A stretch of 24,000 bases of DNA from Sulfurovum riftiae (lineage in GTDB: Bacteria; Campylobacterota; Campylobacteria; Campylobacterales; Sulfurovaceae). Location: contig NZ_LNKT01000045.1 in the NCBI RefSeq assembly GCF_001595645.1, forward strand, positions 69,472 through 93,471, written 5' to 3'. The notes under the pieces were generated by a model. It was not told where the DNA came from and made no database searches. It saw only the letters and a list, made by a program, of their open reading frames with translations. Below, one piece after another: positions 4,733 through 23,766 of this stretch. Numbering within the stretch: position 1 is the stretch's first letter; each line of letters begins with the position of its first letter. The position numbers were made by a program, and so were the translations under genes.

Positions 4733-4767
4733 GTTGAGCGCTGAGCGTTCAGCGTTCAGTGTTCGGA
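4733..4767 (+). repeat. Heptamer array GTTGAGC/GCTGAGC/GTTCAGC/GTTCAGT/GTTCGGA directly after the tatA stop; self-complementary
   Basis: 7-nt periodicity read directly. On the + strand RNA, 4733-4744 pairs with 4749-4760: 12 bp including 3 G.U, with loop GCGU. Confidence 0.8.
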
Positions 4768-9009: not shown

Positions 9010-10203
9010 ATGAAAACAGTAAAAGATATCGATATTGACGGCAAAAGAGTATTTATACGATGTGACTTCAACGTACCAAAAGACGAATTCGGTAACATCA
9101 CCGATGACAGACGTATCCGTTCTGCACTGCAGACGATCCGCTACTGCATTGACAGAGACTGCAAGATCATTCTTGCATCACATTATGAGAGACCGGAACC
9201 GGGCAAGTATGAAGAGAAATACTCTTTGAAACCCGTAGCAAAAAGGCTGCATACCCTTCTGAAGATCAAAAATGAACTCTATATGGCCAATGATGTGGTC
9301 GGTCCGGATGCCAAAGAGAAAGCGGCCAAACTGGAGGCAGGTGACGTTCTGATGCTTGAGAACCTTCGTTATGAAGCAGGGGAGACCAGCAATGATGAGG
9401 CATTTGCCAAAGAGTTGGCTTCCTTTGCCGATGTCTATATCAATGACGCTTTCGGTGCTTGCCATAGAAAGCATGCTTCTATCTATGCTATTGCAAAACA
9501 GTTCGACAGAGACCATAAAGCGGCAGGTTTTCTGATGGCAAAAGAAGTTAACTTCTTCAGCAAAGTACTTGAAGAACCTATCAGACCCTTTGTGGCGGTG
9601 GTAGGCGGATCGAAAGTATCGGGTAAACTTCAGGCTTTGACCAACCTCCTCAATAAAGTGGACAAAGTCATTATCGGCGGCGGTATGGCATTTACTTTTC
9701 TCAAGGCACAGGGCTATGAGATCGGCAAATCGCTGGTGGAGGATGACCTGATCGACGAAGCAAGGGACATCATGGAAAAAGCGCACTCTCTGGGTGTGAA
9801 ATTCTACCTCCCTGTCGATTTTGTCGTGGCACCGGAATTTTCAGAGAATACAGCAGTCAAATACCTTCCTTCCCAGGAGATCCCTCATGACTGGATGGGG
9901 CTCGATACGGGACCGGCCTCTTCAAGACTTTTCCGTGAAGTGCTCAACGATGCACAGACGATCATCTGGAACGGGCCAATGGGCGTGTACGAGATGGACA
10001 AGTTCTCCAAAGGGAGTATCATGATGTCTCACCATATCGCGGAGACACATGCAACGACCATTGTTGGCGGTGGTGATACTGCTGATGTGGCACAAAGAGC
10101 CGGGGATGTGGATGAAATGACCTTTGTCAGTACCGGAGGCGGTGCAAGCCTCAAGCTGATAGAGGGAATCAAACTTCCCGGTCTTGAAGCATTAGAAAAG
10201 TGA
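9010..10203 (+). CDS. pgk: Phosphoglycerate kinase
   Basis: RxDFNVP, GGAKVSxK-like (GGSKVSGK), GGGDT and STGGGA motifs. The stop codon TGA forms the first 3 nt of the heptamer array. Confidence 0.96.
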
Positions 10204-10228
10204 ACAGAGTACAGTGAACAATGAACAA
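10199..10228 (+). repeat. Cassette 1, 5' arm: tandem heptamers TGAACAG/AGTACAG/TGAACAA/TGAACAA
   Basis: 7-nt periodicity read directly. 10209-10223 (GTACAGTGAACAATG) is the perfect reverse complement of 10582-10596. The arm contains the pgk stop and the four-helix-bundle ATG. Confidence 0.9.
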
Positions 10229-10580
10229 TAATATTTTGAGTGAAAAAAGTTTTTCTTTTGCCCTTAGAATCATTAAATTGTCATCGTTCCTAACTGATAA
10301 AAAAAGAGAGTATACTCTTTCAAAACAGATTTTACGAAGTGGTACTTCAATTGGTGCTTTGGTGCGTGAAGCACAATATGCACAGTCCAAATCGGATTTT
10401 ATTCATAAATTAAGTATTGCACTTAAAGAAGCCAATGAAACAGAATATTGGTTGCAGTTATTGGTAGAGTCTGAATATATAAGTCGTAAGATGTTTGAAA
10501 GTATTGAACCAGAAATAAAAGAGTTATTGAGATTATTGATCTCAAGTATAAAAACCACAAAACAAAATATAAATACATAA
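10221..10580 (+). CDS. Four-helix-bundle protein (23S rRNA intervening-sequence protein family, TIGR02436/PF05635, Avd-like), copy 1
   Basis: Family-typical KSFSFALRIIKL...LSKQILRSGTSIGALVREAQYAQSKSDFIHKLSIALKEANETEYWLQLL. About 119 aa. Much more AT-rich than pgk and tpiA. Confidence 0.9.
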   Translation: MNNNILSEKSFSFALRIIKLSSFLTDKKREYTLSKQILRSGTSIGALVREAQYAQSKSDFIHKLSIALKEANETEYWLQLLVESEYISRKMFESIEPEIKELLRLLISSIKTTKQNINT

Positions 10581-10581
10581 G

Positions 10582-10614
10582 CATTGTTCACTGTACATTG
10601 TACATTGTTCACTG
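10582..10614 (+). repeat. Cassette 1, 3' arm: tandem heptamers CATTGTT/CACTGTA/CATTGTA/CATTGTT/CACTG
   Basis: 7-nt periodicity. Inverted complement of the 5' arm. Starts 2 nt after the ORF stop and ends just before the tpiA RBS (AAAGGA). Confidence 0.9.
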
Positions 10615-10626
10615 AAAGGATACCCT

Positions 10627-11316
10627 ATGATCTTTGCTGCCAACTTTAAAATGAACCATACGCGTGCGACGACCAAAGCCTATCTGGATGTATTGGCTCA
10701 GAAGCTGGTTTCAAAATGCAGTGAAGACCGTGTTTTCATTTTTCCGCCTGCCACGGCACTGGATAGGTATGAAGGTGATTTTACGATTGGAGTGCAGAAT
10801 GCCTATATGGCGGAGTCCGGTGCCTATACCGGTGAGATCGGCCTGGAACAGCTTGAAGAGTTCGGCATAAAGACCATTCTCATCGGCCATAGTGAAAGGC
10901 GTGATGTTCTGGGTGAGGACCAGGCACTGGTCGCTGAGAAATTCGCCTATTTCAAAGCGCAGGGTTTCGAGATCGTCTACTGTATCGGTGAAGCATTGGA
11001 GGTAAGGGAAAAGGGAGATGAAGCGGTAATGGCACATCTTCTTTCCCAGTTCGAGGGGATCGACCTCTCGTATGAAAAACTCATCATTGCCTATGAACCG
11101 ATCTGGGCGATCGGTACAGGGCGTTCTGCGACGACAGAAGAGATCTCCTCTACACATGCGTCACTCAAAGAGCACTTTGACAGGCCTCTGCTCTATGGCG
11201 GCTCCGTCAAACCTGAAAACATCAAAGAGATCACTGCAATTGATGGTGTGGATGGTGTTCTGGTAGGTTCCGCTTCTTTGGATGTGGAGCGTTTTTCCGA
11301 AATGATCTTCGCGTAA
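10627..11316 (+). CDS. tpiA: Triose-phosphate isomerase
   Basis: MIFAANFKMN start, IGHSERR, YEPIWAIGTG, GGSV motifs. Confidence 0.95.
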   Translation: MIFAANFKMNHTRATTKAYLDVLAQKLVSKCSEDRVFIFPPATALDRYEGDFTIGVQNAYMAESGAYTGEIGLEQLEEFGIKTILIGHSERRDVLGEDQALVAEKFAYFKAQGFEIVYCIGEALEVREKGDEAVMAHLLSQFEGIDLSYEKLIIAYEPIWAIGTGRSATTEEISSTHASLKEHFDRPLLYGGSVKPENIKEITAIDGVDGVLVGSASLDVERFSEMIFA

Positions 11317-11327
11317 GAAATTGGAGT

Positions 11328-11363
11328 CGGGACTTCAGTCCCGTTAACGCGACTGAAGTCGCG
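11328..11363. terminator. Twin hairpins between convergent tpiA and nusA
   Basis: CGGGAC-TTCA-GTCCCG (11328-11343) and CGCGAC-TGAA-GTCGCG (11348-11363), arranged around a central GTTAAC. No clean U-tract on either strand, so terminator function is uncertain. Confidence 0.5.
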
Positions 11364-11379
11364 ATTCCTGGAGGAGGTT

Positions 11380-12543
11380 TTATTTGAACAGATCCGCCAA
11401 TGCGCTTGTATCTGTTGTCTTCTCCATTTCACCGCCTTCAGCAGATTCAGGTTGTCTTTCTGTGACCCCTTCCACTTCATTCAGCTCAATGGTATAGCCT
11501 GTCAGCATCGATGCCAGACGGATGTTGATACCGCTTTTACCGATCGCTTTGGCTTTCTGGTCGCCGGTAATGTTGATGACAGCTTTCTTCTCATCCTGAT
11601 CGACCTTGATGCTCTGCGTGATCGCAGGACTTAATGCCCTTGTGATGAAGATCTCCGGGATGGGAGAGTATTCGATACAGTCGATGTTCTCACCGTTAAG
11701 CTCTTCACTGACCGCGTTGATACGCACCCCTTTGACACCGACAGCAGCACCGATAGGGTCCACATTCATCTGGTCGGTCTTCAGTGCGATCTTCGCTCTC
11801 TCACCGGGAATTCTCGCAGCATTGACGATCTCGACGACGCCGTCCGCGATCTCCGGCACTTCACTTGCCATCAGGGCTTCAAGGAACTTTGGCGATGTTC
11901 TTGTCAGCTCGAGGAAAAGACCATACTGCGGATCGACACTGACATAACGCAGCAGCGCTCTGATGGTATCTCCGCGCTTGAACTTTTCGCCTTTGATACG
12001 GTTCCTGAGTGTCAAAATCCCCTTCAGCTCGCCGATCTCCACATGGGTATTGTCGTCGGCGTCAATACGGTTGACAGTCCCCAACATGACAGTACCGACC
12101 TTTTCTCTGTATTTTTCGAACAGGTCCTGCTCGATACGTCTCTGTAGGTGATATTCAAGCTCTCTGAAAAGATTGGCGGAAGCGGTACGTCCATGATCTT
12201 CGAGGATGAACTCCTCTGTCAGTTTGTCGCCGATCTCGAGTGACTCGTCGAACTCTTTGGCTTCGGAGAGAGGCATAACGGCATCGGAAGGTACCATCTC
12301 TTTGTTATCTTCTCTTCCTACTTCCACGAAAAGCTGCTCATCGTCATCTGCCACGACCGTAATGACCTTGTGTACTGAATAGGTCTTGGTATCGTTATCG
12401 ATGGTCACTTCGAAATTGCTTGTATAGCTTGTCAGTTTTTTGGCAGTGTTGATCAGTGCTTCTTTGAATGCTTCGATCGCATGTTCTTTTGAGATGTTTT
12501 TTTCATGTGCGATCGCTTCTATGATATCTAGTATTTTTTCCAT
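11380..12543 (-). CDS. nusA: Transcription termination/antitermination factor NusA
   Basis: N-terminal MEKILDIIEAIAHEKNI, S1 domain and two KH domains (GxxGxRI, GKxGxNIRLA). I prefer ATG 12543, which has an AAGGAAA RBS, to the ORF-track start at 12594. Confidence 0.93.
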   Translation of the reverse strand: MEKILDIIEAIAHEKNISKEHAIEAFKEALINTAKKLTSYTSNFEVTIDNDTKTYSVHKVITVVADDDEQLFVEVGREDNKEMVPSDAVMPLSEAKEFDESLEIGDKLTEEFILEDHGRTASANLFRELEYHLQRRIEQDLFEKYREKVGTVMLGTVNRIDADDNTHVEIGELKGILTLRNRIKGEKFKRGDTIRALLRYVSVDPQYGLFLELTRTSPKFLEALMASEVPEIADGVVEIVNAARIPGERAKIALKTDQMNVDPIGAAVGVKGVRINAVSEELNGENIDCIEYSPIPEIFITRALSPAITQSIKVDQDEKKAVINITGDQKAKAIGKSGINIRLASMLTGYTIELNEVEGVTERQPESAEGGEMEKTTDTSALADLFK

Positions 12544-12733
12544 AATCCATTTCCTTGAATGTAGTTTCAATCCTACCGCTACAAGAGGTAACATAACAGT
12601 GTTAAGAACGTCCGGGGGAGCAGTGTTTTTGAAGAATAGAATTATATCTCATCTAACCTTTACTGAAAATAAAGTATAATAAATGAAATTGATGTCATGA
12701 AACTGAATAATAAATTGCAAAAGGTATAGAGAA

Positions 12734-12973
12734 ATGAAACTGAAACTTGCTAGAACGACACTTAAAGCAAAACCGAAAACCATCGAGTTGAAAAAACTGG
12801 AAGAGGAACTAGCAAGCAGATCGATCTTTTACTTTGACAAAGACAATTCCCATAAAGAGCTGAAAGAGCTTATCGAATATTTCGAAGAGAAGGGCTATTC
12901 TGTCTATATGCGCGAAGTGAAATATGGCCTTGATGATAACGAGTTCATCTACGAAGTACATATCATTGCCTAA
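12734..12973 (+). CDS. Small conserved protein (79 aa), possibly the HP0268-like family found next to miaB in Helicobacter
   Basis: Good RBS (AAAGG) and a clean ORF. Sits directly upstream of miaB, as HP0268 does relative to HP0269. The family assignment is from memory and position only. Confidence 0.55.
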   Translation: MKLKLARTTLKAKPKTIELKKLEEELASRSIFYFDKDNSHKELKELIEYFEEKGYSVYMREVKYGLDDNEFIYEVHIIA

Positions 12974-12982
12974 GGAGAACAG

Positions 12983-13010
12983 GTAGCGCGTTGTGCGTAG
13001 CCAGTAGAAT
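12983..13010 (+). repeat. Heptamer-periodic tract GTAGCGC/GTTGTGC/GTAGCCA/GTAGAAT
   Basis: GTAG recurs with 7-nt spacing, read directly. The tract is degenerate. Confidence 0.55.
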
Positions 13011-13037
13011 CTTACACTCATTAAACACTTTATCTTC

Positions 13038-13067
13038 TACCCCTACCCACATTACCCACTACCCACT
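13038..13067 (+). repeat. Approximately heptameric tract TACCCC/TACCCACAT/TACCCAC/TACCCAC just upstream of the miaB ATG
   Basis: Read directly. Opposite polarity (CTAC vs GTAG) to the 12983-13010 tract and only partly complementary to it. It occupies the place where an SD would be expected. Confidence 0.6.
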
Positions 13068-13072
13068 ATAAA

Positions 13073-14368
13073 ATGAAGAAACTATTTATCGAAACCCTCG
13101 GATGCGCAATGAATGTCCGTGACAGTGAACATATGATCGCCGAACTGAACCGGAAAGAACCTTACGAACTCACGCAGAATCTTGACGAAGCCGACCTTAT
13201 CATCATCAACACCTGTTCCGTCAGGGAAAAACCGGTCGCCAAACTCTTCTCAGAGATCGGTGTCTTCAACAAGCACAAAAAATCCGGAGCCAAGATAGGT
13301 GTTGCAGGGTGTACTGCGAGCCACCTGGGGAAAGATATTATCAAGAGAGCACCGTCGGTGGATTTTGTCATCGGTGCAAGGAATGTCTCAAAGATCACAC
13401 AGGTGGTCGACAAAAAACATGCCGTTGAAATAGATACGGATTATGATGAGAGTACCTATGCGTTCGGTGAGTACAGGACCAACCCTTTCAAAGCGATGGT
13501 GAATATCTCCATCGGCTGTGACAAATCCTGTACCTTCTGTATCGTTCCTGCGACCAGAGGCGATGAGATTTCCATTCCCAGTGACCTTTTGGTACAGGAG
13601 ATTAGCAAAGCGGTCGCATCGGGTGCCAGAGAGGTGATGCTTCTGGGGCAGAATGTCAATAATTACGGCAGACGTTTCGGTGCCGCAGAAGAGCAGATCG
13701 ATTTTACGGGACTGCTTCGCAAGATCTCGAAGATAGAAGGACTGGAGCGTATCAGGTTCACCTCACCTCATCCGCTGCACATGGATGATGCATTCATCGA
13801 AGAGTTCGCCTCCAATCCGAAGATATGCAAGCAGATACATGTGCCGCTTCAGAGCGGCTCGACCTCTCTGCTCAAAGCCATGAAGCGCGGCTATACCAAA
13901 GAGAATTTTCTCAACCGTTGTGAGAAGATACGCACGCTCTGTCCCGAAGCAACGATCTCTACCGATATCATTGTGGGATTTCCGGGAGAGCGCGAAGAAG
14001 ATTTTGCAGATACGATGGATGTCCTTGAAAAGGTGCGTTTTGAACAGCTTTTTTCTTTCAAGTACTCTCCCAGACCCCATACGGAAGCGGCAGAATTCGA
14101 AGAGCAGATCGATGATAAAGTTGCCGGGGAACGCCTGACAAGATTGCAGGCAAGGCATACGGAGATCCTCGATGAGATTATGGATGCACAGCTTGGGAAG
14201 ATACATGAGGTCTATTTCGACGAACTCAAATCCAACGGCAGGATTTCCGGACGAAGCGATGACGGAAAACTGGTCTTTGTCGAAGGAAGTGAAGAGCTGC
14301 TCGGGAAGATCGTGGATGTCAAGATCACAAAAACGTCACGCGGTGCACTAGACGGTGTAGTGGTATAG
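13073..14368 (+). CDS. miaB: tRNA-2-methylthio-N6-dimethylallyladenosine synthase (radical SAM methylthiotransferase)
   Basis: UPF0004 N-terminal domain ([20 protein letters not shown]), radical SAM CxxxCxxC (CDKSCTFC), C-terminal TRAM domain. Confidence 0.93.
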
Positions 14369-14374
14369 AGTGTT

Positions 14375-14995
14375 ATGAAGGAGTTTTTCAGGGGAGTGGC
14401 AAAGGTTATCGTTCCTCCTCTTGTCTACCTTTTGATGCGGATCATCTGGTGGACGACTTCCAAGAAATTCCATTTCATCTCTCCCGTAAGTGAGGTACAG
14501 CATGTCTGTGTCTGCTGGCACGGCGAACTTCTTATGAGCCCTCAGGCCTACAGGAAAATACACAGAAAACAGCCGGCATCGGCCATCATCTCTTCCCATT
14601 TTGACGGCTCGCTTATTGCAGGTACACTGCAACTTCTGGGGATAAGGCCGCTGAGAGGTTCTACCAAAAAAGGTGCAAAACAGGTGCTCCTTCAGGCATT
14701 TAAAAGTATCAAGCAGGGGGAAGAGGTACTCATTACGCCCGATGGCCCCAGGGGGCCCAGACACTCCATGAGTGACGGTGCCGTAGGGATCGCACTCAAG
14801 AGTAATCTGCCGATCTTCATTATGAACTTCACGGCTGAGAACTACTGGCAACTGAAGAGTTGGGACCGGTTCGTCATCCCCAAGCCTTTTACAAAGGTTG
14901 ATTTCTATCTGCAGAGCGTCTCTCTGGAGGGCATGGATTTTGAAGAGGCGAAAGAGTACCTTCGAGAGAAAATGTTAGAACATACAATTCCGTAG
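14375..14995 (+). CDS. DUF374 / lysophospholipid acyltransferase-like protein (HP0270-like)
   Basis: N-terminal TM segment. WHGELL (HxxxxD-like region), ITPDGPRGP motif typical of DUF374. Conserved position after miaB. Confidence 0.75.
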   Translation: MKEFFRGVAKVIVPPLVYLLMRIIWWTTSKKFHFISPVSEVQHVCVCWHGELLMSPQAYRKIHRKQPASAIISSHFDGSLIAGTLQLLGIRPLRGSTKKGAKQVLLQAFKSIKQGEEVLITPDGPRGPRHSMSDGAVGIALKSNLPIFIMNFTAENYWQLKSWDRFVIPKPFTKVDFYLQSVSLEGMDFEEAKEYLREKMLEHTIP

Positions 14996-14996
14996 A

Positions 14997-15026
14997 GTCG
15001 GTTTACCGACCAGGTTTTTTATTTCA
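14997..15026 (+). terminator. Rho-independent terminator after the DUF374 gene (first hairpin of a double-hairpin element)
   Basis: GTCGG-TTTA-CCGAC followed by CAGGTTTTTTATTT. Confidence 0.7.
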
Positions 15027-15063
15027 TGGTCGGTGAACCGACCCTACAGGGGAGGAATATAGA

Positions 15064-15900
15064 ATGAAAGAGAAGCTTCAAAACTATGTAGAAGATTTTC
15101 TTGAATATCTTCTTGATGTTCGCGGGTACTCTGAACTTTCTGTGGAGACCTACGAGATCGCGTTGCGACAGATGGGTGAGGTGAGCCATTTTTATGAAGA
15201 GGACGGCATGACGGTGCTCGATATCACCCCATTTCGTTTCAAGATCGTTAAAAACAGTAAAAAGACCATTGTCAAAAAACTCTCAGCCGTGCGCTCTTTC
15301 GTCAAATACCTTGAAGAGCAGTGCCATCTTTTGGTCAAACTCATTGCAGATGAGTCCATAAAGGTACCCCAAAGCCTCCCCAAGCCTATTGAAGAGCAGT
15401 ATATAGACGAGGTGTTGGAGAAGGCCAATTTGGAGGAGAAACTGCTTATAACGATGTTGTATGGTTTGGGACTGAGAATTTCTGAACTCAGTGGGATGAA
15501 ACTGGAAGATATCAAAGGTGAGTGGGTACAGATACATGGGAAAGGGAATAAAGTAAGAGAGTTGCCTTTGATGGAGGAATTAACGAGACTGATCAAATTG
15601 TATCGTGACCGTTATGTGCCTAAAAGGTATCTTTTTGAAAAAGGCAATGCTCCGATGAACGCGGCACAACTGCGCTACAAATTGACAAAACTCTTTAAAA
15701 AAGAGGGGCTGAAGGTCACCCCTCATCAACTGCGCCACTCTTTTGCGACACATCTTCTCAACCATGGTGCAAGAATAGCCGATGTCAGCGAACTCCTGGG
15801 GCATGAGACGATGGCCACGACACAGGTCTATACCAAACTTGGGTCGGTAAAGAAGATGCAGGAGTATATGAAGGCGCATCCACTCGCAAAAGAGGAGTGA
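15064..15900 (+). CDS. xerH: Tyrosine site-specific recombinase, XerH/XerC-D type
   Basis: Catalytic motifs LGLRISE (Arg I), HQLRHSFATHLL (H-x-x-R), LLGHETMATTQVYT (catalytic Tyr). GGAGG RBS. Confidence 0.85.
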   Translation: MKEKLQNYVEDFLEYLLDVRGYSELSVETYEIALRQMGEVSHFYEEDGMTVLDITPFRFKIVKNSKKTIVKKLSAVRSFVKYLEEQCHLLVKLIADESIKVPQSLPKPIEEQYIDEVLEKANLEEKLLITMLYGLGLRISELSGMKLEDIKGEWVQIHGKGNKVRELPLMEELTRLIKLYRDRYVPKRYLFEKGNAPMNAAQLRYKLTKLFKKEGLKVTPHQLRHSFATHLLNHGARIADVSELLGHETMATTQVYTKLGSVKKMQEYMKAHPLAKEE

Positions 15901-15948
15901 CCCTTCGACAGGCTCAGGGACCGAGGAAAAAAATCGTTTATCCCGTAG

Positions 15949-15975
15949 GGTGGGCTTCAGCCCACCTTTCTTTAC
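15949..15975 (+). terminator. Hairpin plus T-rich tail downstream of xerH (first hairpin of a double-hairpin element)
   Basis: GGTGGGC-TTCA-GCCCACC followed by TTTCTTTAC. Confidence 0.55.
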
Positions 15976-16036
15976 AATTCGGATTTGAAATAATAATCCA
16001 TTTGTCTATAGGTTTTTTGGTGGGCTAAAGCCCACC

Positions 16037-17020
16037 CTACGGAAGTATTGTTAGGTCAATATTTTCCCGGTACAAATACGCTCTGATCTTGGGAGGAATC
16101 CTTTTGACCCTGCACTTTTCTTTGAATTCTTTTGGCATATCTGTTGTAACGTAGGGGGCAACATAAAGAAGGTCATCCTCTATTTCAATTGCCCACTCCC
16201 CACCAATGACCAGACTTTTTTCTCTTGCTATTTCTTCTCTCTGAGCAGAGGAAAGAAGATATCCCAGTTTTTTCAGTGTAAGGTCAGCAGCTTTTACTTT
16301 TGAACTAGTCTGCCTGAGTTTGATGATACGCAGTTGTTTTTCAGCGAAAAGCGTTTCGAAACCGGATTCGAGCAGTTTTTTATCGTCTCTCAGATAGGAA
16401 AAACTTCGTTTGATCCCCTCTCTGAATTGGGAAATGAGCGGATCGGAAAACGCTTTTCTAAAACGGTTACGTTCATATTTTTCATTGCTGTTGCTGTCGT
16501 CTATGAAATAGGGATAGTTATGTATTTCTAAATAATCAAGCAGTTCTTCCTTGGAATATTCAAGAAGAGGTCGAATCAAAGTATATCCATCCCTTTTACT
16601 TACTGGTTCAAGCCCAATGAGTTCTGAAAGCCCGGCTCCTTTGGTCAGGCGCATAAAAAGCCATTCAAGCTGGTCGTTCAGTTGATGTGCGGTCAGAAGC
16701 GTATCGTAGCCATGTTCTGCAATAAGGGTTTCAAAAAAATCGTAGCGGAATTTTCGTGCGTTTGCTTCAAAATGAGTTTTGAATACTGGTGCCTTGGTGG
16801 TGTAACACTTTTTGCCATATTTTTTCGCCAATGCTTTGGCATGCTCCTCTTCCTTGTTACTTTCCGGTCGTGTTCCGTAATTCACCAACGCGATATCGAA
16901 AGGGATATTGTTTTCCAAAAGAAGGAAAAAGAGGGCGGAAGAGTCTATTCCTGCTGAGAAGGCGAGCAGATTCTTCTTTTGAAGTAGGAAGTAGGAAGTA
17001 GGAAGTAGCAATTGAGACAT
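16037..17020 (-). CDS. tilS: tRNA(Ile)-lysidine synthetase
   Basis: PP-loop SAGIDSS (SGGxDS type) and a TilS-like central region. The first ~13 codons (MSQLLLPTSYFLL) are encoded by cassette/repeat sequence. The ATG overlaps the upstream four-helix-bundle stop (TAATG). Confidence 0.88.
   Translation of the reverse strand: MSQLLLPTSYFLLQKKNLLAFSAGIDSSALFFLLLENNIPFDIALVNYGTRPESNKEEEHAKALAKKYGKKCYTTKAPVFKTHFEANARKFRYDFFETLIAEHGYDTLLTAHQLNDQLEWLFMRLTKGAGLSELIGLEPVSKRDGYTLIRPLLEYSKEELLDYLEIHNYPYFIDDSNSNEKYERNRFRKAFSDPLISQFREGIKRSFSYLRDDKKLLESGFETLFAEKQLRIIKLRQTSSKVKAADLTLKKLGYLLSSAQREEIAREKSLVIGGEWAIEIEDDLLYVAPYVTTDMPKEFKEKCRVKRIPPKIRAYLYRENIDLTILP
16981..17008. repeat. Cassette 2 arm: (GAAGTAG)x4, perfect, lying inside tilS codons 4-13
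   Basis: Four identical tandem heptamers read directly. Reverse complement of 17373-17396 (24 nt, perfect). Confidence 0.95.
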
Positions 17021-17373
17021 TATATAGATTCTTTGATTTTTTTTGTACTTGAAATAAGAAGTTTTAGAAGCTCATCTATTTCAGGAGCAATACTATTGTA
17101 CATTTTCTCATTGATATAATTAGATTCATTGAGTATTAAGAGCCAATATTCTGTTTCATTTGCTTCTTTAAGTGCGATAGTAAGCTTGTGTAGAAAATCA
17201 GCTGTTGATTGTGCATATTGTGCTTCTCTTATGAGTGCTCCAATGGATGTTCCACTTCGTAAAATTTGTTTTGAAAGTATATGTTCTTTGTGATTTTTCT
17301 GTAAATACTGGGAAAGCTTGACAATACGTAAGGCAAAAGAGAAACTTTTGTCGCGTAAGAGATCTTTTTTCAT
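17020..17373 (-). CDS. Four-helix-bundle protein (23S rRNA IVS protein / Avd-like family), copy 2
   Basis: KSFSFALRIVKL...LSKQILRSGTSIGALIREAQYAQSTADFLHKLTIALKEANETEYWLLIL. 117 aa and AT-rich. Lies 2 nt after the rimO stop and overlaps the tilS start by 1 nt. Confidence 0.9.
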   Translation of the reverse strand: MKKDLLRDKSFSFALRIVKLSQYLQKNHKEHILSKQILRSGTSIGALIREAQYAQSTADFLHKLTIALKEANETEYWLLILNESNYINEKMYNSIAPEIDELLKLLISSTKKIKESI

Positions 17374-17399
17374 TCCTACTTCCTACTTCCTACTTCCTC
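17373..17399. repeat. Cassette 2 arm: (TTCCTAC)x3 plus one degenerate unit, forming the rimO C-terminus and stop and reaching the first base of the four-helix-bundle start codon
   Basis: Read directly. Encodes the RimO tail ..SEEVGSRK* on the minus strand. Perfect 24-nt complement of 16981-17008. Confidence 0.95.
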
Positions 17400-18704
17400 A
17401 CTGATGAGTGTTGCCAGCAATTGGCTTCCTACCAGTTCTGTCACCTTTGCTTCATACACTTTTCCATATTCGACCGGGAGGTCGGAAGTGTCGTTGATGA
17501 GGACCTCACCATCAATATCTACTGCCCACTGAAGCGGCCTGGCAGAGAGAAGGTACTCATGCTCGTCGCTTTCGCCGTCGATGACAAGTTCAATGGTCTT
17601 GCTTACCATTTTTTCCAACGATCTTAATGTTGAGGCTTCAGCGATCTCCCCGAGTATCTCTGCTCTCTCATCGATGATCTCCTGGGGGATCTGCTGCATT
17701 GCATAGGCTGTTGTGGTTTCCTCATTGGAATAATGGAAAGTATTGAATCTGTCGAAGCCGAAGTTTTCCATGAAGGTACAGAGTTTCTCAAAGCTCTCCT
17801 GTGTCTCTCCCGGATGCCCTGCAATGACAGAGGTTCTCAGGAAAGCATTGGGTTTGCTTTTCATGTATTCAAGCAGCTCGATGGTTTTCTGCTCGCCAAA
17901 ACCACGCTTCATGATCTTGAGTACAGCATCGTCGATGTGCTGGATAGGCATATCATAGTAGGTCTGGAAGATCTTTGAGTCGGCAATGGCATCGATGAGT
18001 GCAAAGGTGGTCGTGCTTGGATAAAGGTACAGAATACGTGCCGAGCGTACACCTTCAATGGATTCAACAGCATTGATGAGGTCGATGAGTCCGTCTTTGA
18101 GACCCATATCTCTTCCGTAACTCGAGGAGTCCTGTGAGATGAAGGAGAAGTCATAATAGCCTTGTGCAGCCAGCATAGTTACTTCTTTTTCAATGGAAGA
18201 GAGCGAGCGTGAATGCAGTTTTCCTTTGAAGCTCGGAATGGCACAGAAGGAGCAGGCCTGGTTACACCCCTCGGCGATCTTGATATAGGCATGGTAATTC
18301 GAACCGGTAATGACCCTGCCGGAAGTTTCTGTTGCCAGGTAGACTTCCGGGGAGAAGGTACTCTGTTTTGAAGCAATGAGTTCATCGATCTTCTCATAGT
18401 CACCCACACCGGTAAAGATATCGATCTCCGGCATATCCTGCTGAAGCTCCTCTTTGTAACGTTCTGAAAGACAGCCGCTCATGACAAGGATGGACTCTTC
18501 TTTTCGCTGGTTATGCAGTTCCAGTACTGTGTTGATACTCTCTTCTTTTGCCGCATCGATGAAGCCGCAGGTATTGACGATAATGACATCGGCTTCTGTA
18601 TTGTCATCGGTGATCTCATACTCTTTGAGACGGCCAAGCATCACTTCGCTGTCAACAAGGTTTTTGGTACAGCCAAGGCTTACCAGATGTAGTTTTTTAG
18701 ACAT
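17376..18704 (-). CDS. rimO: Ribosomal protein S12 methylthiotransferase
   Basis: MSKKLHLVSLGCTKNLVDSE N-terminus, radical SAM CNQACSFC, TRAM domain. I prefer ATG 18704 to the ORF-track start at 18779. Confidence 0.92.
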   Translation of the reverse strand: MSKKLHLVSLGCTKNLVDSEVMLGRLKEYEITDDNTEADVIIVNTCGFIDAAKEESINTVLELHNQRKEESILVMSGCLSERYKEELQQDMPEIDIFTGVGDYEKIDELIASKQSTFSPEVYLATETSGRVITGSNYHAYIKIAEGCNQACSFCAIPSFKGKLHSRSLSSIEKEVTMLAAQGYYDFSFISQDSSSYGRDMGLKDGLIDLINAVESIEGVRSARILYLYPSTTTFALIDAIADSKIFQTYYDMPIQHIDDAVLKIMKRGFGEQKTIELLEYMKSKPNAFLRTSVIAGHPGETQESFEKLCTFMENFGFDRFNTFHYSNEETTTAYAMQQIPQEIIDERAEILGEIAEASTLRSLEKMVSKTIELVIDGESDEHEYLLSARPLQWAVDIDGEVLINDTSDLPVEYGKVYEAKVTELVGSQLLATLISEEVGSRK

Positions 18705-18734
18705 AGTTTTTCTTTTAGTTATAAAATTTTTGAG

Positions 18735-18743
18735 ATTATAGCA
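18735..18743 (-). promoter_or_regulatory. Extended -10 (TGCTATAAT) candidate promoter for rimO
   Basis: The minus-strand sequence TGCTATAAT lies about 31 nt upstream of the rimO ATG. Confidence 0.5.
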
Positions 18744-18843
18744 TATTCTTGTAGATAGAAAAATCGAAGGATCCGTCATTCTCGGCTTGACTGGGAATCT
18801 ATAGATATCGTTCTAAATAATAAGGTTTGAATTTTTTTAAGGG

Positions 18844-18885
18844 AAAATAAAAAAGAGGCAAGAGCCGGGCCGCAGGCCCGAACTC
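18844..18885 (-). terminator. Rho-independent terminator of the porin gene
   Basis: Minus strand: GAGTTCGGGCC-TGC-GGCCCGGCTC followed by TTGCCTCTTTTTTATTTT. Confidence 0.85.
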
Positions 18886-18913
18886 TCTGTGTTACAACGT
18901 TAAGAACTGATTC

Positions 18914-20371
18914 TTAGAAGTCGTAAGAAGCGATTAGACGGATAACGTTGTTTGTTTCTGGAATAAATGCACCAGTGTTACCACTGTCATCTCTGTTAGG
19001 ATTGTTTGAACCCCAGTCGAAATCTTGGTTAATCCACATTGCTTTAAGACCAAGGTCTCCATAAGCAGTGTTGAATTTTGTAGCATAGATGAAGTCAAAT
19101 TCATTGAAGTCATGATCATTTCCATCTAAACCATCTTCAACATCGGAAGCACCGTATGCAGCGATGAATTTACCACCAAGACCTTTGTATATACCTTTGA
19201 TCATCCATGTGTCAACATCACCCTGATGTCCATCGATGAAGATCTGGTTAAGAACCATCTGAGTATAGAGTGGAGATTTAACACCTGTACCGAAGTTTGT
19301 TACAGTAAGACCACCATCTGTGTCTACACCCGTATAGGCAGCCAATGCACTGAAGTCACCCCAGTGTCCACCTACTTTTACACCCCATGCAGTTGTGCTG
19401 TCTACAACAATGTCACTTGCATCAAGGTATCCACCTTGAAGGCCGAATTCTACAGGGAAGTCAGCAGTGTTGTATGCAAGATCACCCCAAAGTACATCAA
19501 CATCTACGTCTGCACCATTAACACCACCACCTTTAATAGCAGATGGAGCATAATAGTATGTACCTGTTGCTGTCAAACCTGCAATAGATTTGTTCTGTGC
19601 AGTCAACATATAGACACCATCATCAGCAATTCTTTCCCAGTCAGCCATATCATGAGTACTGGTAATTGCTACAATTGAACCAGCCCAGCTACGAGAACCG
19701 TTTGCTCTAGTTACATAAGCACCGACCAAAGTTGTGTCTGGAAGGTCTGTGTTAACAACAAGTGCTGCTTCAAATGTGTTCTTGAAGATATTCCAACCCT
19801 CAGAGAATGCAAATGGAGAAAGAGATTTAGGAAGTTCTTGACGACCTATTTTGATTGAAGTATTAGCGATACCATATGTCAAGTATGCCTGGCTGATCCA
19901 TGCTCCACTCAATGCATTGTCTGCATCTTTTGTACCATTCAAGAATGCATCCTGCTCACCAACACTTTGCATACTACCTGTCACAACACCATAGTCTACA
20001 AGGTTTAGAGTTGAAAGACCAGTAAGCTCAGCACCGAAACCGATACCTGCGATCACGTCTTTGTTGCTTACTCTGAGTTGAAGACCAGCATCTGCTGCAG
20101 AAGATCTTCTGTCAAACATATCGTTGTCAGCACCTACGATAGGCCCAGCAACACCACCACCTGGTAGTCCACCGTATGGTAGTATATTGAGGCCGCCTGC
20201 CCCAAGTGCACCATAAACAAAGTTCTGGTGATCCATTGTCTGGTAATAAACTTTTGCTGTTCCACTCCACTCCCAGTTGGAAGTTTCCTCTACTACTGGT
20301 GCTGGAGCGATATCACCGCCCGCCATAACTGCTACTGAAGCCACTACTGAAAGTAATAATGCTTTTTTCAT
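18914..20371 (-). CDS. Major outer membrane porin (Campylobacter MOMP/PorA-like)
   Basis: Signal peptide MKKALLLSVVASVAVMAGG. G/Y/T/D-rich beta-barrel composition. C-terminal ..LIASYDF. Consensus promoter, AGGAG RBS and a strong terminator suggest high expression. Confidence 0.8.
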   Translation of the reverse strand: MKKALLLSVVASVAVMAGGDIAPAPVVEETSNWEWSGTAKVYYQTMDHQNFVYGALGAGGLNILPYGGLPGGGVAGPIVGADNDMFDRRSSAADAGLQLRVSNKDVIAGIGFGAELTGLSTLNLVDYGVVTGSMQSVGEQDAFLNGTKDADNALSGAWISQAYLTYGIANTSIKIGRQELPKSLSPFAFSEGWNIFKNTFEAALVVNTDLPDTTLVGAYVTRANGSRSWAGSIVAITSTHDMADWERIADDGVYMLTAQNKSIAGLTATGTYYYAPSAIKGGGVNGADVDVDVLWGDLAYNTADFPVEFGLQGGYLDASDIVVDSTTAWGVKVGGHWGDFSALAAYTGVDTDGGLTVTNFGTGVKSPLYTQMVLNQIFIDGHQGDVDTWMIKGIYKGLGGKFIAAYGASDVEDGLDGNDHDFNEFDFIYATKFNTAYGDLGLKAMWINQDFDWGSNNPNRDDSGNTGAFIPETNNVIRLIASYDF

Positions 20372-20403
20372 TGTAATCTCCTTGTTTTTTTGAATACGAG
20401 CGA

Positions 20404-20433
20404 ATTATAACATATTATATTTATAAATGTCAA
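20404..20433 (-). promoter_or_regulatory. Near-consensus sigma-70 promoter for the porin gene
   Basis: Minus strand: TTGACA, 18-nt spacer, TATAAT. AGGAG RBS (20378-20382 on the + strand) precedes the ATG. Confidence 0.7.
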
Positions 20434-20702
20434 GTTTATTAATAAAAAGTTAATGGAGGAAACGATTGCTTATGAACCCCGTGTACACGTATGGTTTTGA
20501 TGATTTTTAAATAACTTAAATTAATTTTAAAGAAATTTTTTTAAGAAAAATACGCTTTTTTTAAGAATAGTAAACGATTTTTTAACCGGATTAGCTAAAG
20601 ATAAGAGACTGATAATGAAGGATTATGAATAAGCGATCGCTTGATGAACGTACAGTTTGAAAATTTAGAGTTGAAAAGTTCGTAATTTAGGGGGTTTGTA
20701 AG

Positions 20703-20778
20703 TGGTGGCGCCGGACGGAATCGAACCGCCGACACATGGATTTTCAATCCATTGCTCTACCAACTGAGCTACGGAGCC
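20703..20778 (-). tRNA. tRNA-Phe (anticodon GAA)
   Basis: The reverse complement reads GGCTCCGTAGCTCAGTTGGTAGAGCAATGGATTGAAAATCCATGTGTCGGCGGTTCGATTCCGTCCGGCGCCACCA. Cloverleaf with D arm GCTC/GAGC, anticodon loop TTGAAAA, T-loop TTCGATT and encoded CCA. One U4:C69 acceptor mismatch. Confidence 0.93.
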
Positions 20779-20921
20779 ACTGTAGTTGTTTGTAAGTGGC
20801 TGAAATTATAACGGCTTAAACTTAAAATAAAAAGAGAAAATGGAATAATGTATTATTTTTGATGAGATTCCGGATCAAGTCCGGAATGACGTTGAGAACA
20901 GATATGGAATAGCAAAAGATC

Positions 20922-22166
20922 TTAAAGTTGTTTTACCAGGTTCATAAAGATCTCTCCTCTTTGGGCGTAATTCTTGAACTGGTCAAAACTTGCAGCGGCG
21001 GGGGAGAGGAGGCCTACATCATCGGCCTGCATATTTTTGTCAATGGCATGTACGGCGTTTTCAAGTGTGTTTGATTCGACGGCAGGGATATTGTATTCCC
21101 TGGCAAGTGAAAGAAGTCTTTCGCTGTTCGCCCCGATCGTATATAATGTAAGTGAAACCTGGGACATGGCTTCAAAATAGGGGTGCAGGTCAACACCCTT
21201 GTCATCCCCCCCTGCAATGAGGTGGATGTGATGGTCGTCATAGGCCTTTATGGCCTGGACCGCGGCATCCACATTGGTTGCTTTGGAGTCATTCACCCAG
21301 AGTCTTCCTTGTGCATCGTGGAACTCCTGCTGCCTGTTGAGATCCATTTTGAAGGTATTGATACAGGCATAGTCCACTTCGTCGAAAAGGACACGGGTCA
21401 CTGCCAGTGCCAGCATGGCATCTTCCAGAAAGGCCGCTTTGAAGTTGATGAGGGCCGGGTCAATGTTGAAATAGTCCGAGAGGAAATCTGTGGAGTCGTA
21501 CTCGACGACAAAAGCATCTGTTTCAGGCAGGTTCAGCCCTTTGGGGACCAGTGCCAGCTCCCCCTCTTTCATGGTAAGCAGCGGACGGAGCTTGTCTGCC
21601 TCATAGGCCTCTTCCGTACCGTGCCAATCAAGATGATCCGGTGTGATGGGAAGCAGGAGATAAATATCCGGTGAGGCGGTCTTTGTATAGTGAAGGGCAT
21701 AGGAACTTGACTCGAGTACCCAGATGGGGGCTTCTGCATCCATTGCCGCCAAGGGTACGCCGATGTTTCCCCCGCTTACCGCACCCCTGTGTTCGAGCAG
21801 GTGGGTAAGCATCTGGGTGGTGGTGGTCTTGCCATTGGTGCCACTGATCCAAACTGTGAATGGCATATGCCGTTCAAGTGAAGAGTGAAGAGTGAAGAGT
21901 GAAGAATGATGTGGTGCCAGAATGTAGTCATATTCGCTCAAAAGATGTTTGGCTTTCTGAATGAGCGGATGGTTTGGCTTGAGGCTTGGTGTAGTGACCT
22001 CAAGTTCACTTTTGTCCGGATCGAACAGCGAAGAGGGCAGTATCTTGTTGCCTTCCTCATCTGTATAGGGTTCTTTGACATTGTCATCATAGAAGATACA
22101 TCCCCCTCCCAGCTTTTTGGCAATGGCTCTAGTGGTCAGTCCGTATCCGAATAGTGTGGGCTTCAT
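20922..22166 (-). CDS. murD: UDP-N-acetylmuramoylalanine--D-glutamate ligase
   Basis: Epsilon-type N-terminus MKPTLFGYGLTTRAIAKKL, P-loop GTNGKTTTT, Mur ligase central and C-terminal domains (NDSKATN). Carries an in-frame heptamer-array insertion just before the P-loop. Confidence 0.93.
   Translation of the reverse strand: MKPTLFGYGLTTRAIAKKLGGGCIFYDDNVKEPYTDEEGNKILPSSLFDPDKSELEVTTPSLKPNHPLIQKAKHLLSEYDYILAPHHSSLFTLHSSLERHMPFTVWISGTNGKTTTTQMLTHLLEHRGAVSGGNIGVPLAAMDAEAPIWVLESSSYALHYTKTASPDIYLLLPITPDHLDWHGTEEAYEADKLRPLLTMKEGELALVPKGLNLPETDAFVVEYDSTDFLSDYFNIDPALINFKAAFLEDAMLALAVTRVLFDEVDYACINTFKMDLNRQQEFHDAQGRLWVNDSKATNVDAAVQAIKAYDDHHIHLIAGGDDKGVDLHPYFEAMSQVSLTLYTIGANSERLLSLAREYNIPAVESNTLENAVHAIDKNMQADDVGLLSPAAASFDQFKNYAQRGEIFMNLVKQL
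21879..21907. repeat. Intragenic heptamer array (TGAAGAG)x3 plus TGAAGAA inside murD
   Basis: Read directly. Same sequence and orientation as the 22187-22216 arm. Translated on the minus strand as HHSSLFTLHSSLE. Confidence 0.9.
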
Positions 22167-22186
22167 GAAAAACTCCGCTTTTCAAA

Positions 22187-22216
22187 TGAAGAGTGAAGAG
22201 TGAAGAGTGAAGAGTG
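22187..22216. repeat. Cassette 3 arm: (TGAAGAG)x4 between the four-helix-bundle stop and the murD RBS
   Basis: Four perfect tandem heptamers. Reverse complement of 22657-22677. Confidence 0.95.
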
Positions 22217-22250
22217 TTGGTTTGCATTGCTGTGCAATGCTTCTATTATA

Positions 22251-22610
22251 TCAGGATGCATTGTTGATGTTCTCTTTTGCTGTTTTGATACTTGATGCAA
22301 GTATTTTTAAAAGGTGTTCTATATCGTCAAGGAGACTAAGTGCAAGTTTTTCCTGAAGATAATTACAGTCCTTTAAAAGCCGTAGCCAGTATTTTGTTTC
22401 ATTTGCTTCTTTAAGTGAAATAGATAGTTTATTGATAAAGTCAAGTTTTGATTGTGCATACTTGCCTTCTGCGATCAAGGCACCAATCGCCGTTCCTGAA
22501 CGTAAAAGCTGTTTGCTAAGAATAAATTCTTTTTTCTCTTGCTGTAAATACTCATTACATTTTACAATGCGAATGGAAAAATTGTAACTCTTCTCTTCTA
22601 GTATACTCAT
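22251..22610 (-). CDS. Four-helix-bundle protein (23S rRNA IVS protein / Avd-like family), copy 3
   Basis: KSYNFSIRIVKC...LSKQLLRSGTAIGALIAEGKYAQSKLDFINKLSISLKEANETKYWLRLL. 119 aa, AT-rich, and the most diverged of the three copies. Confidence 0.88.
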   Translation of the reverse strand: MSILEEKSYNFSIRIVKCNEYLQQEKKEFILSKQLLRSGTAIGALIAEGKYAQSKLDFINKLSISLKEANETKYWLRLLKDCNYLQEKLALSLLDDIEHLLKILASSIKTAKENINNAS

Positions 22611-22656
22611 GGTTCTTTCTCAAAAGATGGAAGCTTTCTGAAAGAAAGCATACCAC

Positions 22657-22688
22657 AACTCTTCACTCTTCACTCTTAATTCTTCACT
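22657..22688. repeat. Cassette 3 arm: ACTCTTC/ACTCTTC/ACTCTTA/ATTCTTC/ACTG between the mraY stop and the four-helix-bundle gene
   Basis: 7-nt periodicity. 22658-22677 is a perfect 20-nt complement of the (GAAGAGT)n arm. Confidence 0.9.
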
Positions 22689-22707
22689 GCTCAAAGTAAA
22701 GCTTTGA

Positions 22708-23766
22708 TCATCTAATTTTAAGTGTGATGAGTGCGAGTACATTGGTGATGAATGCGATCATCCAGAAGCGGATGATGATCTTGTTCTCGGGCCACTCTTT
22801 GAGTTCGAAGTGGTGGTGGATGGGTGCCATGAGGAAAACACGTTTCTTGCGCAGTTTGTAGCTTCCGACCTGCAGAATGACAGAAACAGTTTCCATGACG
22901 AAGATGAAACCGATGAGAATGAGCAGGACCTCACTTTTGCCAAGGATGGCAAGGTATGCCAGAAAACCACCGATAGAGAGGCTTCCCGTATCTCCCATGA
23001 AGATCTCCGCCGGATAACAGTTGTACCATAAGAATCCCATAAGTGCACCGGCAAGTGCAGTAGTAAGGACCAGGACCTCTCCCACACCTTTGATGTTGGG
23101 CATCAGGAGGTACTCGCTGATGATTGCATGTCCTGTAATGTAGACGATGACGCCAAGAGAGACGAGAGAGATGATGGAAGGTACCGTTGCCAGGCCATCC
23201 AGGCCATCGGTAAGGTTCACGGCATTGGTGACAGCAAGGAACATGACGATCCAAAAGGGGATGGCAAAATACCCCATATCAAAAAGTGGTGTCTTGACAA
23301 AAGGCACATAGAATTCAGTGGGGAAACCGGAGTAGACAAGCAGGCCGGTGGAGATAAGGGCAACAACGACCTGCAGGCCCATTTTTCCGCGGGGAGTAAG
23401 CCCCTCAAGGTTGTCACCTGAGAGAATTTTCCCAATGTCATCCTTAAAGCCTACCAGGCCAAAACCTACAAGAGTAATAAGCCCACCCCAGACATAGATG
23501 TTGGCCAGGTCGATGACGATGAATGCGGCGATAAGTGTTGCCGTAATGAAAACCGCTCCGCCCATAGTAGGGGTCTTTCCTTTGCCTGCATGTGCTGCGA
23601 CATATTTGCTGATGGGCTGGTTGGCATTTTTGGAAATGGCCCAGGCCAGATACTTTGGCATGAGTATCAAGACAAGCAGAAAAGCAAGCAGAAAAGCGAG
23701 TCCGGCACGCACGGAGATGTATCCGAAAAGGTTCATGTGGAGGAGATGGTTCAGTTCATATAGCAT
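22708..23766 (-). CDS. mraY: Phospho-N-acetylmuramoyl-pentapeptide transferase
   Basis: Ten-TM protein with [13 protein letters not shown], the conserved [11 protein letters not shown] motif (here [11 protein letters not shown]), and APIHHHFE. Confidence 0.95.

Follow-up and report, generated by a model that had tools for sequence, protein, structure and literature searches.

A stretch of 24,000 nt from Sulfurovum riftiae (NZ_LNKT01000045.1, positions 69,472-93,471; hereafter the window) raises the question of what kind of element can stand between adjacent housekeeping genes at three separate places, pgk|tpiA, rimO|tilS and mraY|murD, and how it came to be there. At each place a short gene for a four-helix-bundle protein of the PF05635/TIGR02436 family is bracketed by two inverted arrays of about four tandem heptamers. 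Comparison with the same junctions in related genomes indicates that the three loci (c1, c2 and c3) are insertions of a discrete cassette and that the arms come with the insert, which apparently leaves the neighbouring genes intact. The interpretation to which we incline, with confidence only a little above even, is that of an operon-compatible cassette, the protein-operon counterpart of the 23S rRNA intervening sequence (IVS) that bears an open reading frame (ORF), dependent on read-through and translational coupling.

The cassette ORFs are located at 10221-10580 on the forward strand (c1, 119 amino acids) and at 17020-17373 and 22251-22610 on the reverse strand (c2, 117 amino acids; c3, 119 amino acids). 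All three exceed the family cutoffs in profile searches, with E-values of 1e-27 to 7e-29 against PF05635 (94-100 bits, cutoff 33.8) and 2e-31 to 3e-29 against TIGR02436 (101-108 bits, cutoff 24). The proteins of c1 and c2 are 68% identical, those of c1 and c3 57% and those of c2 and c3 56%, and the original prediction, an earlier reading of this DNA from its letters alone, was right in describing three intact, diverged paralogues. Those of c2 and c3 are identical to two S. riftiae proteins annotated as 'four helix bundle protein', and the MurD of the window is 100% identical to the one recorded by NCBI for this species. The AlphaFold model of the cassette protein (pLDDT 92.6) has four helices arranged as an up-and-down bundle like those of 2RLD and 2GSC. 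Its best structural match is 2RLD from Bacteroides thetaiotaomicron (TM-score 0.90-0.96, 58% identity, sequence E-value 4e-45), followed by weaker matches to 2GSC (TM-score 0.82) and to Avd, 4DWL (TM-score 0.75, 16% identity); each of these three crystals contains five chains, A-E. The genes on either side of c1 encode PGK (9010-10203) and TIM (tpiA, 10627-11316) on the forward strand. On the reverse strand, c2 lies between the genes for RimO (17376-18779; TIGR01125, 388 bits, cutoff 357) and TilS (16037-17020), and c3 between those for MraY (22708-23766) and MurD (20922-22166). Both flanking genes are co-oriented with the cassette at all three loci, and the cassettes, 413-500 nt long, have a GC content of 0.29-0.34 against 0.45-0.50 in the flanks. 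The AT-richness, co-orientation and positions at these three junctions that had been described earlier were all confirmed.

The arms are 27-42 nt long. At c1, the 5' arm (10200-10229, forward strand, GTGAACAGAGTACAGTGAACAATGAACAAT) holds both the stop codon of pgk, which terminates on the first TGA of the arm (10201-10203), and the cassette ATG (10221-10223). The 3' arm (10582-10614, forward strand, CATTGTTCACTGTACATTGTACATTGTTCACTG) is the complement of the 5' arm and is followed by a spacer (10615-10626, AAAGGATACCCT) with a Shine-Dalgarno-like motif for tpiA. At c2, on the reverse strand, the 5' arm (17373-17399, GAAGTAG/GTAGGAA x 3.7) supplies the last seven codons of rimO, encoding EEVGSRK, together with its TAG stop, and abuts the cassette ATG at 17373-17371. 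The 3' arm of c2 (16981-17012, CTACTTC x 4) is open in all frames, and the tilS ORF runs through it with the N-terminal extension LLLPTSYFLLQ. The genes at this locus form a chain in which the rimO TAG is followed after 2 nt by the cassette ATG, and the TAA of the cassette gene overlaps the tilS ATG (TAATG); both the chain and the extension are seen likewise in two relatives (L001 and L002; L-numbers denote loci of relatives). At c3, also on the reverse strand, the 5' arm (22658-22693, GTGAAGA-type x 4.4) lies 15 nt downstream of the mraY stop. Its 3' arm (22187-22246) comprises 4.3 units of ACTCTTC and an imperfectly complementary inner spacer, and a further spacer (22167-22186), which holds the murD Shine-Dalgarno sequence GGAG, precedes the murD ATG. 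Tandem Repeats Finder delimited the heptamer arrays at 10211-10229, 10582-10608, 17373-17398 and 22658-22688 and, with 100% matching units, at 16981-17008 (4.0 copies) and 22187-22216 (4.3 copies). In an inverted-repeat search the arms pair over 29 nt at 83% (15 nt perfect) in c1, over 24 nt at 100% in c2 and over 60 nt at 77% (20 nt perfect) in c3. The inverted arrays had thus been located correctly in the first place, with the right units and with 15, 24 and 20 perfect pairs.

Insertion is indicated by a series of empty, arms-only and full alleles. In the sister lineage L177, which is 91-92% identical at the nucleotide level in pgk and tpiA, the junction is empty: the pgk TAA overlaps the tpiA ATG and no array is present. 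The same junction is also empty and array-free in L181, L183, Sulfurovum sp. NBC37-1 and S. lithotrophicum. In L180 the junction is occupied by a hairpin of arms alone, TGAACAG-AGTACA-CTGTTCA followed by CTGAAAGGATA, with boundaries identical to those of the full cassette; it consists of the outer ends of the S. riftiae c1 arms and the shared Shine-Dalgarno spacer, and the gene is absent. Since the c1 spacer is found in this arms-only allele and is absent from the empty sites, it belongs to the insert. At mraY|murD, S. lithotrophicum is empty (TAA-t-ATG, no array), and the GGAG-bearing spacer ahead of murD is restricted to cassette-bearing genomes. Insert-borne spacers, together with the stops within the arms, mean that the insert supplies the stop codon of the upstream gene and the ribosome-binding site of the downstream gene. 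The alignment of junctions called for by the original prediction thus found empty sites at both pgk|tpiA and mraY|murD, where arrays do not pre-exist. Sulfurovum sp. ST-21 has an orthologous c3 cassette; the two 3' arms agree in every position over 36 nt, although the third positions of the ORF are only 58% identical. A general rule that arm conservation exceeds that of synonymous sites was considered and dropped, since it holds for the two Sulfurovum pairs and fails for several Bacteroidota pairs. In one further Sulfurovum genome (L188, 1658-1800) the mraY|murD spacer of 143 nt contains a duplicated 5' end of murD and a different palindrome, the cassette being absent, which suggests repeated rearrangement at this junction.

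The same architecture is found far beyond S. riftiae. PF05635 is a large family, matched at E <= 1e-3 by 14,513 clusters at 50% identity. Scanning one genome per species gave more than 575 relatives, and from these the best 80 loci (55-74% identity) were taken on protein similarity alone; they belong to Campylobacterota, Bacteroidota, Cyanobacteriota, Chloroflexota, Planctomycetota, Acidobacteriota, Gammaproteobacteria, Spirochaetota and others. The family sample comprises 81 cassettes from about ten phyla, and 1577 random positions of equal geometry in the same loci served as controls. A flank-to-flank inverted repeat with a score of at least 12 is present in 80% of the cassettes and in 0.4% of the controls, so that the bracketing noted in the window holds across genomes. 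A period-7 signal (score at least 15/21) is found upstream of 84% and downstream of 78% of cassettes, compared with 1.9% of controls, and is restricted to this period, as periods 5, 6, 8 and 9 stay at background level. Ten distant members (27-48% identity), located on plasmids of Nostoc, Euhalothece, Gloeocapsa, Chlorohelix, Azospirillum and others, were also inspected, and seven of them have inverted purine-rich/pyrimidine-rich heptamer arms. Elements of the family have a median length of 441 nt, are AT-richer than their flanks in 78 of 81 cases, by 10 points on average, and carry arms whose type correlates with protein lineage (Spearman rho 0.34).

These results bear on the simplest alternative, according to which gene and arrays have no functional link, the arrays being generic intergenic repeats, like the short tandemly repeated repetitive (STRR) sequences, that pre-exist at junctions where four-helix-bundle genes land or survive. 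Gene-free solo arrays in the window and elsewhere would fit this explanation, as would the fact that heptamer repeats have been described independently of such genes. However, orthologous empty sites are free of arrays, arrays accompany 80% of cassettes and 2% of controls, the two arms of one cassette match each other and follow the protein lineage, and the arms-only allele has exactly the boundaries of the full cassette. The absence of a link is therefore largely refuted, and we consider it highly improbable.

The heptamers follow a common pattern. Registered on the stop codon, the unit consensus is D-T-G(a)-A(g)-n-A-A, and arrays have a median length of 4.2-4.3 units, about 30 nt. Words in the window are GTGAACA, GTAGGAA and GTGAAGA, and those in relatives include TTGACAA, TTGAGAA, TGACCAG and others; the earlier statement that the unit differs at each locus is correct for the words, which are nevertheless variants of one consensus and not free. 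TGA, TAG or TAA occurs in the unit of 35 of 38 5' arms, read in sense, and of 39 of 44 3' arms, read in antisense. Because 7 is 1 modulo 3, three successive units place a stop codon in every frame, and 32 of the 38 5' arms are closed in all three. In 23 of 38 cassettes the 5' array terminates a host ORF of at least 80 codons, and the cassette ATG frequently lies inside or directly behind this array, many arrays ending at the ATG. The 3' arm, by contrast, is open in all three frames in 33 of 44 cases, which would allow the downstream gene to start ahead of the arm and read through it. A more general rule is that the purine-rich arm comes first, which by symmetry is true on both strands; the purine-richness of the upstream arm on the sense strand, noted earlier for the window, is generalised in this form. 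What had been overlooked is the asymmetry between closed and open arms, as well as the existence of arms-only derivatives and of solo arrays. Such a frame-independent design, 'stop here' on one side and 'read on' on the other, would explain insertion at low cost between essential, co-translated genes, and may serve as a template for engineered neutral insertion modules in operons.

Orientation within operons is the second regularity. Against baselines computed within the same loci, the upstream neighbour is co-oriented in 73 of 74 cases (baseline 75.7%, p 3e-8), the downstream neighbour in 70 of 75 (75.7%, p 7e-5) and both neighbours in 63 of 68 (58.4%, p 3e-10), and cassettes are separated from their neighbours by short gaps (median about 30 nt). 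Neither sigma-70-like promoters nor intrinsic terminators beyond shuffled expectation flank the three window cassettes. The dependence on read-through that had been proposed is supported by this lack of detected signals and by the near-uniform orientation of upstream genes. Distant members lie within RND-efflux, helicase-methylase, csx2|cas1, cas6|cas4 and DUF1156|HEPN operons. In an earlier study 18 such genes were reported in cas loci and were then taken to have a cas-associated function (PMC3936711); the present architecture suggests that PF05635 genes in cas operons may be re-read as cassette insertions and not as cas functions. No match to the defence models of PADLOC was found.

Among known systems, the ORF-bearing 23S rRNA IVS of Leptospira and Coxiella comes nearest in kind. 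The S23p IVS of Coxiella burnetii is an AT-rich sequence of 428 nt whose terminal stem of 28 bp loops out a PF05635 ORF and is cut by RNase III in mid-stem (PMC4990558). It resembles the cassettes in its homologous protein, in its size (the median here is 441 nt), in an ORF looped out by a stem of terminal inverted repeats, predicted at 25-30 bp here, and in total length (413-500 nt in the window, about 430-760 nt in IVSs of this kind); both are also AT-rich relative to the host, lack a mobility enzyme and are sporadically distributed. The differences are equally clear. An IVS is located in a 23S rRNA helix (25 or 45), whereas the cassettes lie between protein genes, and a scan of the window with Rfam returned a single tRNA, no rRNA and no family at the cassettes. 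Cassette arms are made of tandem heptamers with stop/open frame properties that are meaningful only beside coding genes. Moreover, the cassette protein is under strong purifying selection, with dN/dS of 0.10-0.15 in unsaturated and 0.04-0.08 in saturated orthologous pairs, whereas Coxiella S23p was reported as probably not made (PMC4990558). The original prediction of an IVS-like selfish cassette within mRNA is thus supported as regards architecture, insertion, dependence on host transcription, and size and layout as in the Coxiella IVS (PMC4990558); the word 'selfish' has become uncertain because the protein is under such selection.

The mechanism that we favour for an operon-compatible cassette may be put together as follows. 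The layout would be a 5' arm of about four purine-rich heptamers, the four-helix-bundle ORF, a reverse-complementary 3' arm and a short spacer with the ribosome-binding site of the next gene. Transcription would be provided by host read-through, and translation of the cassette gene by termination-reinitiation coupled to the upstream gene. The arms would pair in the mRNA into a stem of 25-30 bp, bringing the two host genes together, and this stem is a plausible substrate of RNase III, as in the homologous IVSs of Coxiella and Leptospira. The cassettes probably spread by rare insertion and loss, along with homologous recombination of the flanks, and any catalytic steps may be contributed by host enzymes. 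Phages are not the main vehicle, since 2.9 million viral contigs yielded just two loci.

Several observations weigh against this interpretation. A target-site duplication is not detectable, the mean flank match of 62 elements being 1.15 nt against 1.17 nt in shuffled pairings. Recently transposed copies were sought, and all protein pairs with at least 90% identity proved to be orthologues in the same context. No transposase, reverse transcriptase or nuclease is linked to any copy, as had been noted in the window, and the four-helix-bundle protein is the sole ORF of the element. The excess of stop codons is moderate when base composition is held fixed (74 of 82 units against 61 expected), and GC-rich hosts use stop-free units such as GTCGGAG and GGACAGA, so that stops are not claimed as universal. 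Mismatches between the arms show no excess of wobble pairs, with 47 G.U, 72 A.C and 132 other mismatches alongside 1873 Watson-Crick pairs. Finally, a minority of loci (L018, L031, L067 and L169) have direct instead of inverted arrays; such cassettes fall outside the explanation by a stem. The last of these loci, cas6|cassette|cas4 on a Pseudanabaena plasmid, has 15 units of AAAGCTA upstream and 10 units of AAAGCCA downstream.

In predicted RNA folds the arms form the terminal stem in both minimum-energy and centroid structures, with z-scores of -4.9, -5.0 and -4.6 for the three cassettes, in line with the earlier expectation of a terminal stem; in c3 the predicted base of the stem takes in the spacer with the murD GGAG. 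The original argument that covariation between the arms implies selection for a stem was overstated, as the units share one consensus, arm type tracks protein lineage and G.U pairs are not in excess (47, against 72 A.C); co-inheritance with concerted evolution would explain the pattern equally well. Without a G.U excess, the sequences by themselves do not tell whether selection acts on a helix in RNA or an inverted repeat is maintained in DNA. A role at the level of transcript or translation is argued most strongly by the sense orientation of cassettes within operons and by the difference in open frames between the two arms.

A second alternative is a mobile element acting as DNA, in which the arrays would be terminal inverted repeats or cruciform/hairpin signals for a host or trans-encoded recombinase, arms-only forms would resemble miniature inverted-repeat transposable elements (MITEs), and the RNA stem and frame properties would be by-products. 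Clean presence/absence and arms-only alleles are compatible with it, and so are arms-only forms inserted in frame where MurD is hypervariable (inserts in 86 of 119 homologues), the turnover of arrays at single sites, the lack of G.U bias, and the strand symmetry of the arms, which are purine-rich inward from both ends as in transposon ends. On the other hand, neither a target-site duplication nor identical copies at different sites were found, transposase, reverse transcriptase and nuclease are unlinked to every copy, and the great differences in unit sequence between loci argue against one sequence-specific transposase. The near-absolute sense orientation and the frame asymmetry are also not predicted by a purely DNA-level role. 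For these reasons we regard this explanation as distinctly unlikely.

Array turnover is seen at rimO|tilS. S. riftiae and L002 have GTAGGAA units, as does the 5' arm of L007/L008; in the 3' arm of L007/L008 all units have changed to GTAGGAG. L001 has GTGAGCA in both arms, and in L033 the cassette is of the ATGAAAA type, with a leftover array of CTTCCTA behind it. At the murD site, a solo array in the window (21877-21909, reverse strand, CTCTTCA x 4.7), with the unit and orientation of the c3 3' arm, is part of a 15-amino-acid in-frame insert including HSSLFTLHSSL. This insert is located at a hypervariable surface site of Sulfurovum MurD, after ..SEYDY and before PFT[IV]W[IV]SGTNGKT. Among 119 Sulfurovum-like MurD proteins, 33 have a minimal linker of 10 residues and 86 have inserts of +3 to +41 residues, many of them visibly encoded by heptamer arrays or other small palindromes. 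Even close species differ in the unit at this site, which is CTCTTCA in S. riftiae and CTACTTC in ST-21; L016 has an ATGAGTA hairpin there, and L004 has none.

Arrays without a cassette gene are also found at two other places in the window, both on the forward strand. An arms-only mini-hairpin between tatA and argS (4733-4764) has two TGAGC-type units followed by the complement GTTCAGC (-21.6 kcal/mol, z -3.6), and a solo array of the 3'-arm type (13037-13068, CTACCCA x 4.4) ends 4 nt before the miaB ATG; both are possibly footprints of lost cassettes. This corrects the original prediction, since heptamer arrays also stand outside the cassettes, at these two places and within murD. Solo arrays amount to 5.9 per 100 kb in cassette loci against 0.83 in unrelated control loci, about seven times denser, and are often adjacent forward-plus-reverse 'empty hairpins' at gene junctions. 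An ABC-transporter operon of Symbiothrix (L051, 1385-5721) and a Thermoguttaceae locus (L018, 1436-9274) have heptamer arrays of one unit type at nearly every junction, some of which encode the termini of the flanking proteins.

These solo arrays lead to a third alternative, a partnership between protein and repeat, which overlaps with the operon-compatible cassette and places the function in a putative recognition of arrays by the protein. The protein, as a homopentamer like 2RLD and Avd, would recognise arrays made of its own type of heptamer, either as RNA or as DNA. The arms would then serve as autoregulatory operators and solo arrays or arms-only hairpins at other gene junctions as trans targets, and the whole would form a horizontally spreading, post-transcriptional 'operon punctuation'. 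Avd is known to bind an RNA stem-loop in the ribonucleoprotein of diversity-generating retroelements (DGRs), and binding of the cassette protein to its own stem or arrays is a reasonable putative idea on these grounds. Arm type follows protein lineage, three paralogues in one genome have three unit types, and array length is tight at about 4.3 units. Also in favour are the five-chained crystals of 2RLD, 2GSC and Avd, the sevenfold density of solo arrays in cassette-bearing loci, the operons with arrays at nearly every junction and the strong purifying selection on the protein, as well as heptamers of the same consensus in the same phyla, situated upstream of start codons and with no known factor (TAACTGA read as CTGATAA; PMC4679880). 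However, the window proteins are near-neutral in charge by eye whereas Avd is basic, shared descent confounds the correlation of protein and arm, and the murD-internal array of ST-21 is of the c2 type, unlike the type of the adjacent cassette, so that local matching of protein and array is not strict. We rate this partnership as unlikely.

The resemblance to Avd is also limited in other respects. Both are four-helix bundles with pentameric relatives, and Avd has a nucleic-acid-binding role, but c1-c3 score only 16-20 bits on NF033474, for which the cutoff is 80. A DGR context was not found: there is no reverse transcriptase domain among the scanned neighbours, the immediate ones being pgk/tpiA, rimO/tilS and mraY/murD, and there are no template or variable repeats nearby. 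To our knowledge, structures of PF05635 have been solved and a function is known only in DGRs. Tandem heptamer repeats have, as far as we know, been catalogued for decades with neither a partner nor a mechanism; those of cyanobacteria, the STRR sequences, are direct repeats of heptamers.

TAACTGA repeats are found in Beggiatoaceae, Cyanobacteria and Bacteroidetes beside start codons, with no known factor or mechanism of transfer (PMC4679880). Like the arms, STRR and TAACTGA arrays consist of tandem 7-nt units, TAACTGA read as CTGATAA fits D-T-G-A-n-A-A, stops occur in forward orientation, positions are just upstream of start codons or overlap ORF ends, the phyla are the same and horizontal spread is suspected (PMC4679880); they belong to the same class as the cassette units with different words. 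They differ in standing alone, as candidate regulatory sites, and an inverted partner, an enclosed gene and PF05635 are not mentioned in the literature searched. It is possible, although we remain doubtful, that PF05635 pentamers are the missing trans-acting partners of heptamer repeats (STRR, TAACTGA and relatives), each lineage reading its own unit type. Gene-bearing cassettes would then be autonomous, and arms-only hairpins and solo arrays, at gene junctions and even in frame within genes, non-autonomous members of a horizontally spreading and hitherto unrecognised class of elements. Such elements would punctuate operons and adjust termination, reinitiation and the processing of mRNA. The tie between PF05635 and heptamers gives both a concrete, testable context with defined ends and natural empty, arms-only and full alleles. 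No literature linking PF05635 genes to bracketing inverted heptamer arrays was found in a search whose coverage is incomplete and leaves most subscription journals outside. Provisionally, we regard the following as new: that the architecture is general across phyla, that the units obey one consensus, that reading frames are closed in the 5' arm and open in the 3' arm, that the insert brings a stop and a ribosome-binding site for its neighbours, that empty, arms-only and full alleles form a series, and that the cassettes are linked to solo heptamer arrays.

Other small elements are less similar. Correia/NEMIS elements of Neisseria and the Rickettsia palindromic elements are short, transposase-free and transcribed, have inverted ends and form mRNA hairpins; Correia hairpins are RNase III substrates and Correia elements have a TA target duplication. 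Inverted ends, the lack of a transposase and location in transcribed regions are shared with the cassettes, and the in-frame arms-only forms in murD recall the Rickettsia elements. Those elements are gene-free with a sequence conserved throughout the family, whereas the cassettes have variable heptamer ends, a conserved gene and no target duplication. Integron cassettes likewise contain a promoterless single gene transcribed from upstream and have inverted repeats variable in sequence and conserved in structure, but the present cassettes have no integron integrase or attI, are scattered singly in housekeeping operons instead of standing in tandem, and have repeats on both sides. Insertion sequences (IS) and MITEs share the terminal inverted repeats, target-site duplication and a cognate transposase being absent from the cassettes.

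The window contains several other features. A XerC/D-like tyrosine recombinase gene (15064-15900), below the XerC and XerD cutoffs, is located between c1 and c2; its product scores 89 bits against the cutoff of 265 for the integron integrase TIGR02249. In L002 a TGAGAAA array directly adjoins the start codon of a XerC/D-like gene (3528-4411), and tilS, which is convergent with this gene, terminates in an AAATGAG array that matches. A degenerate fragment of an IS256-family transposase (2-661), cut by the window start, lies 9.5 kb from the cassettes and is unrelated to them. GC-rich palindromes resembling repetitive extragenic palindromic sequences (GGTGGGCTTCAGCCCACC type) at 11323-11368 and 15943-16042, in the convergent intergenic regions tpiA/nusA and xerC-like/tilS, represent another repeat family, unrelated to the heptamers. 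A small ORF of the HP0268 family (12734-12973; PF18618, E 2e-35) stands between nusA and miaB, a position conserved in L177, L180 and L186. The ORF at 18914-20371 encodes 485 amino acids with a signal-peptide-like N-terminus and a porin-like composition, and has no Pfam or NCBIfam match. Next to tRNA-Phe (20703-20778), the region 20400-20900 is very AT-rich (GC 0.27) and includes a 20-nt tandem repeat at 20535-20583.

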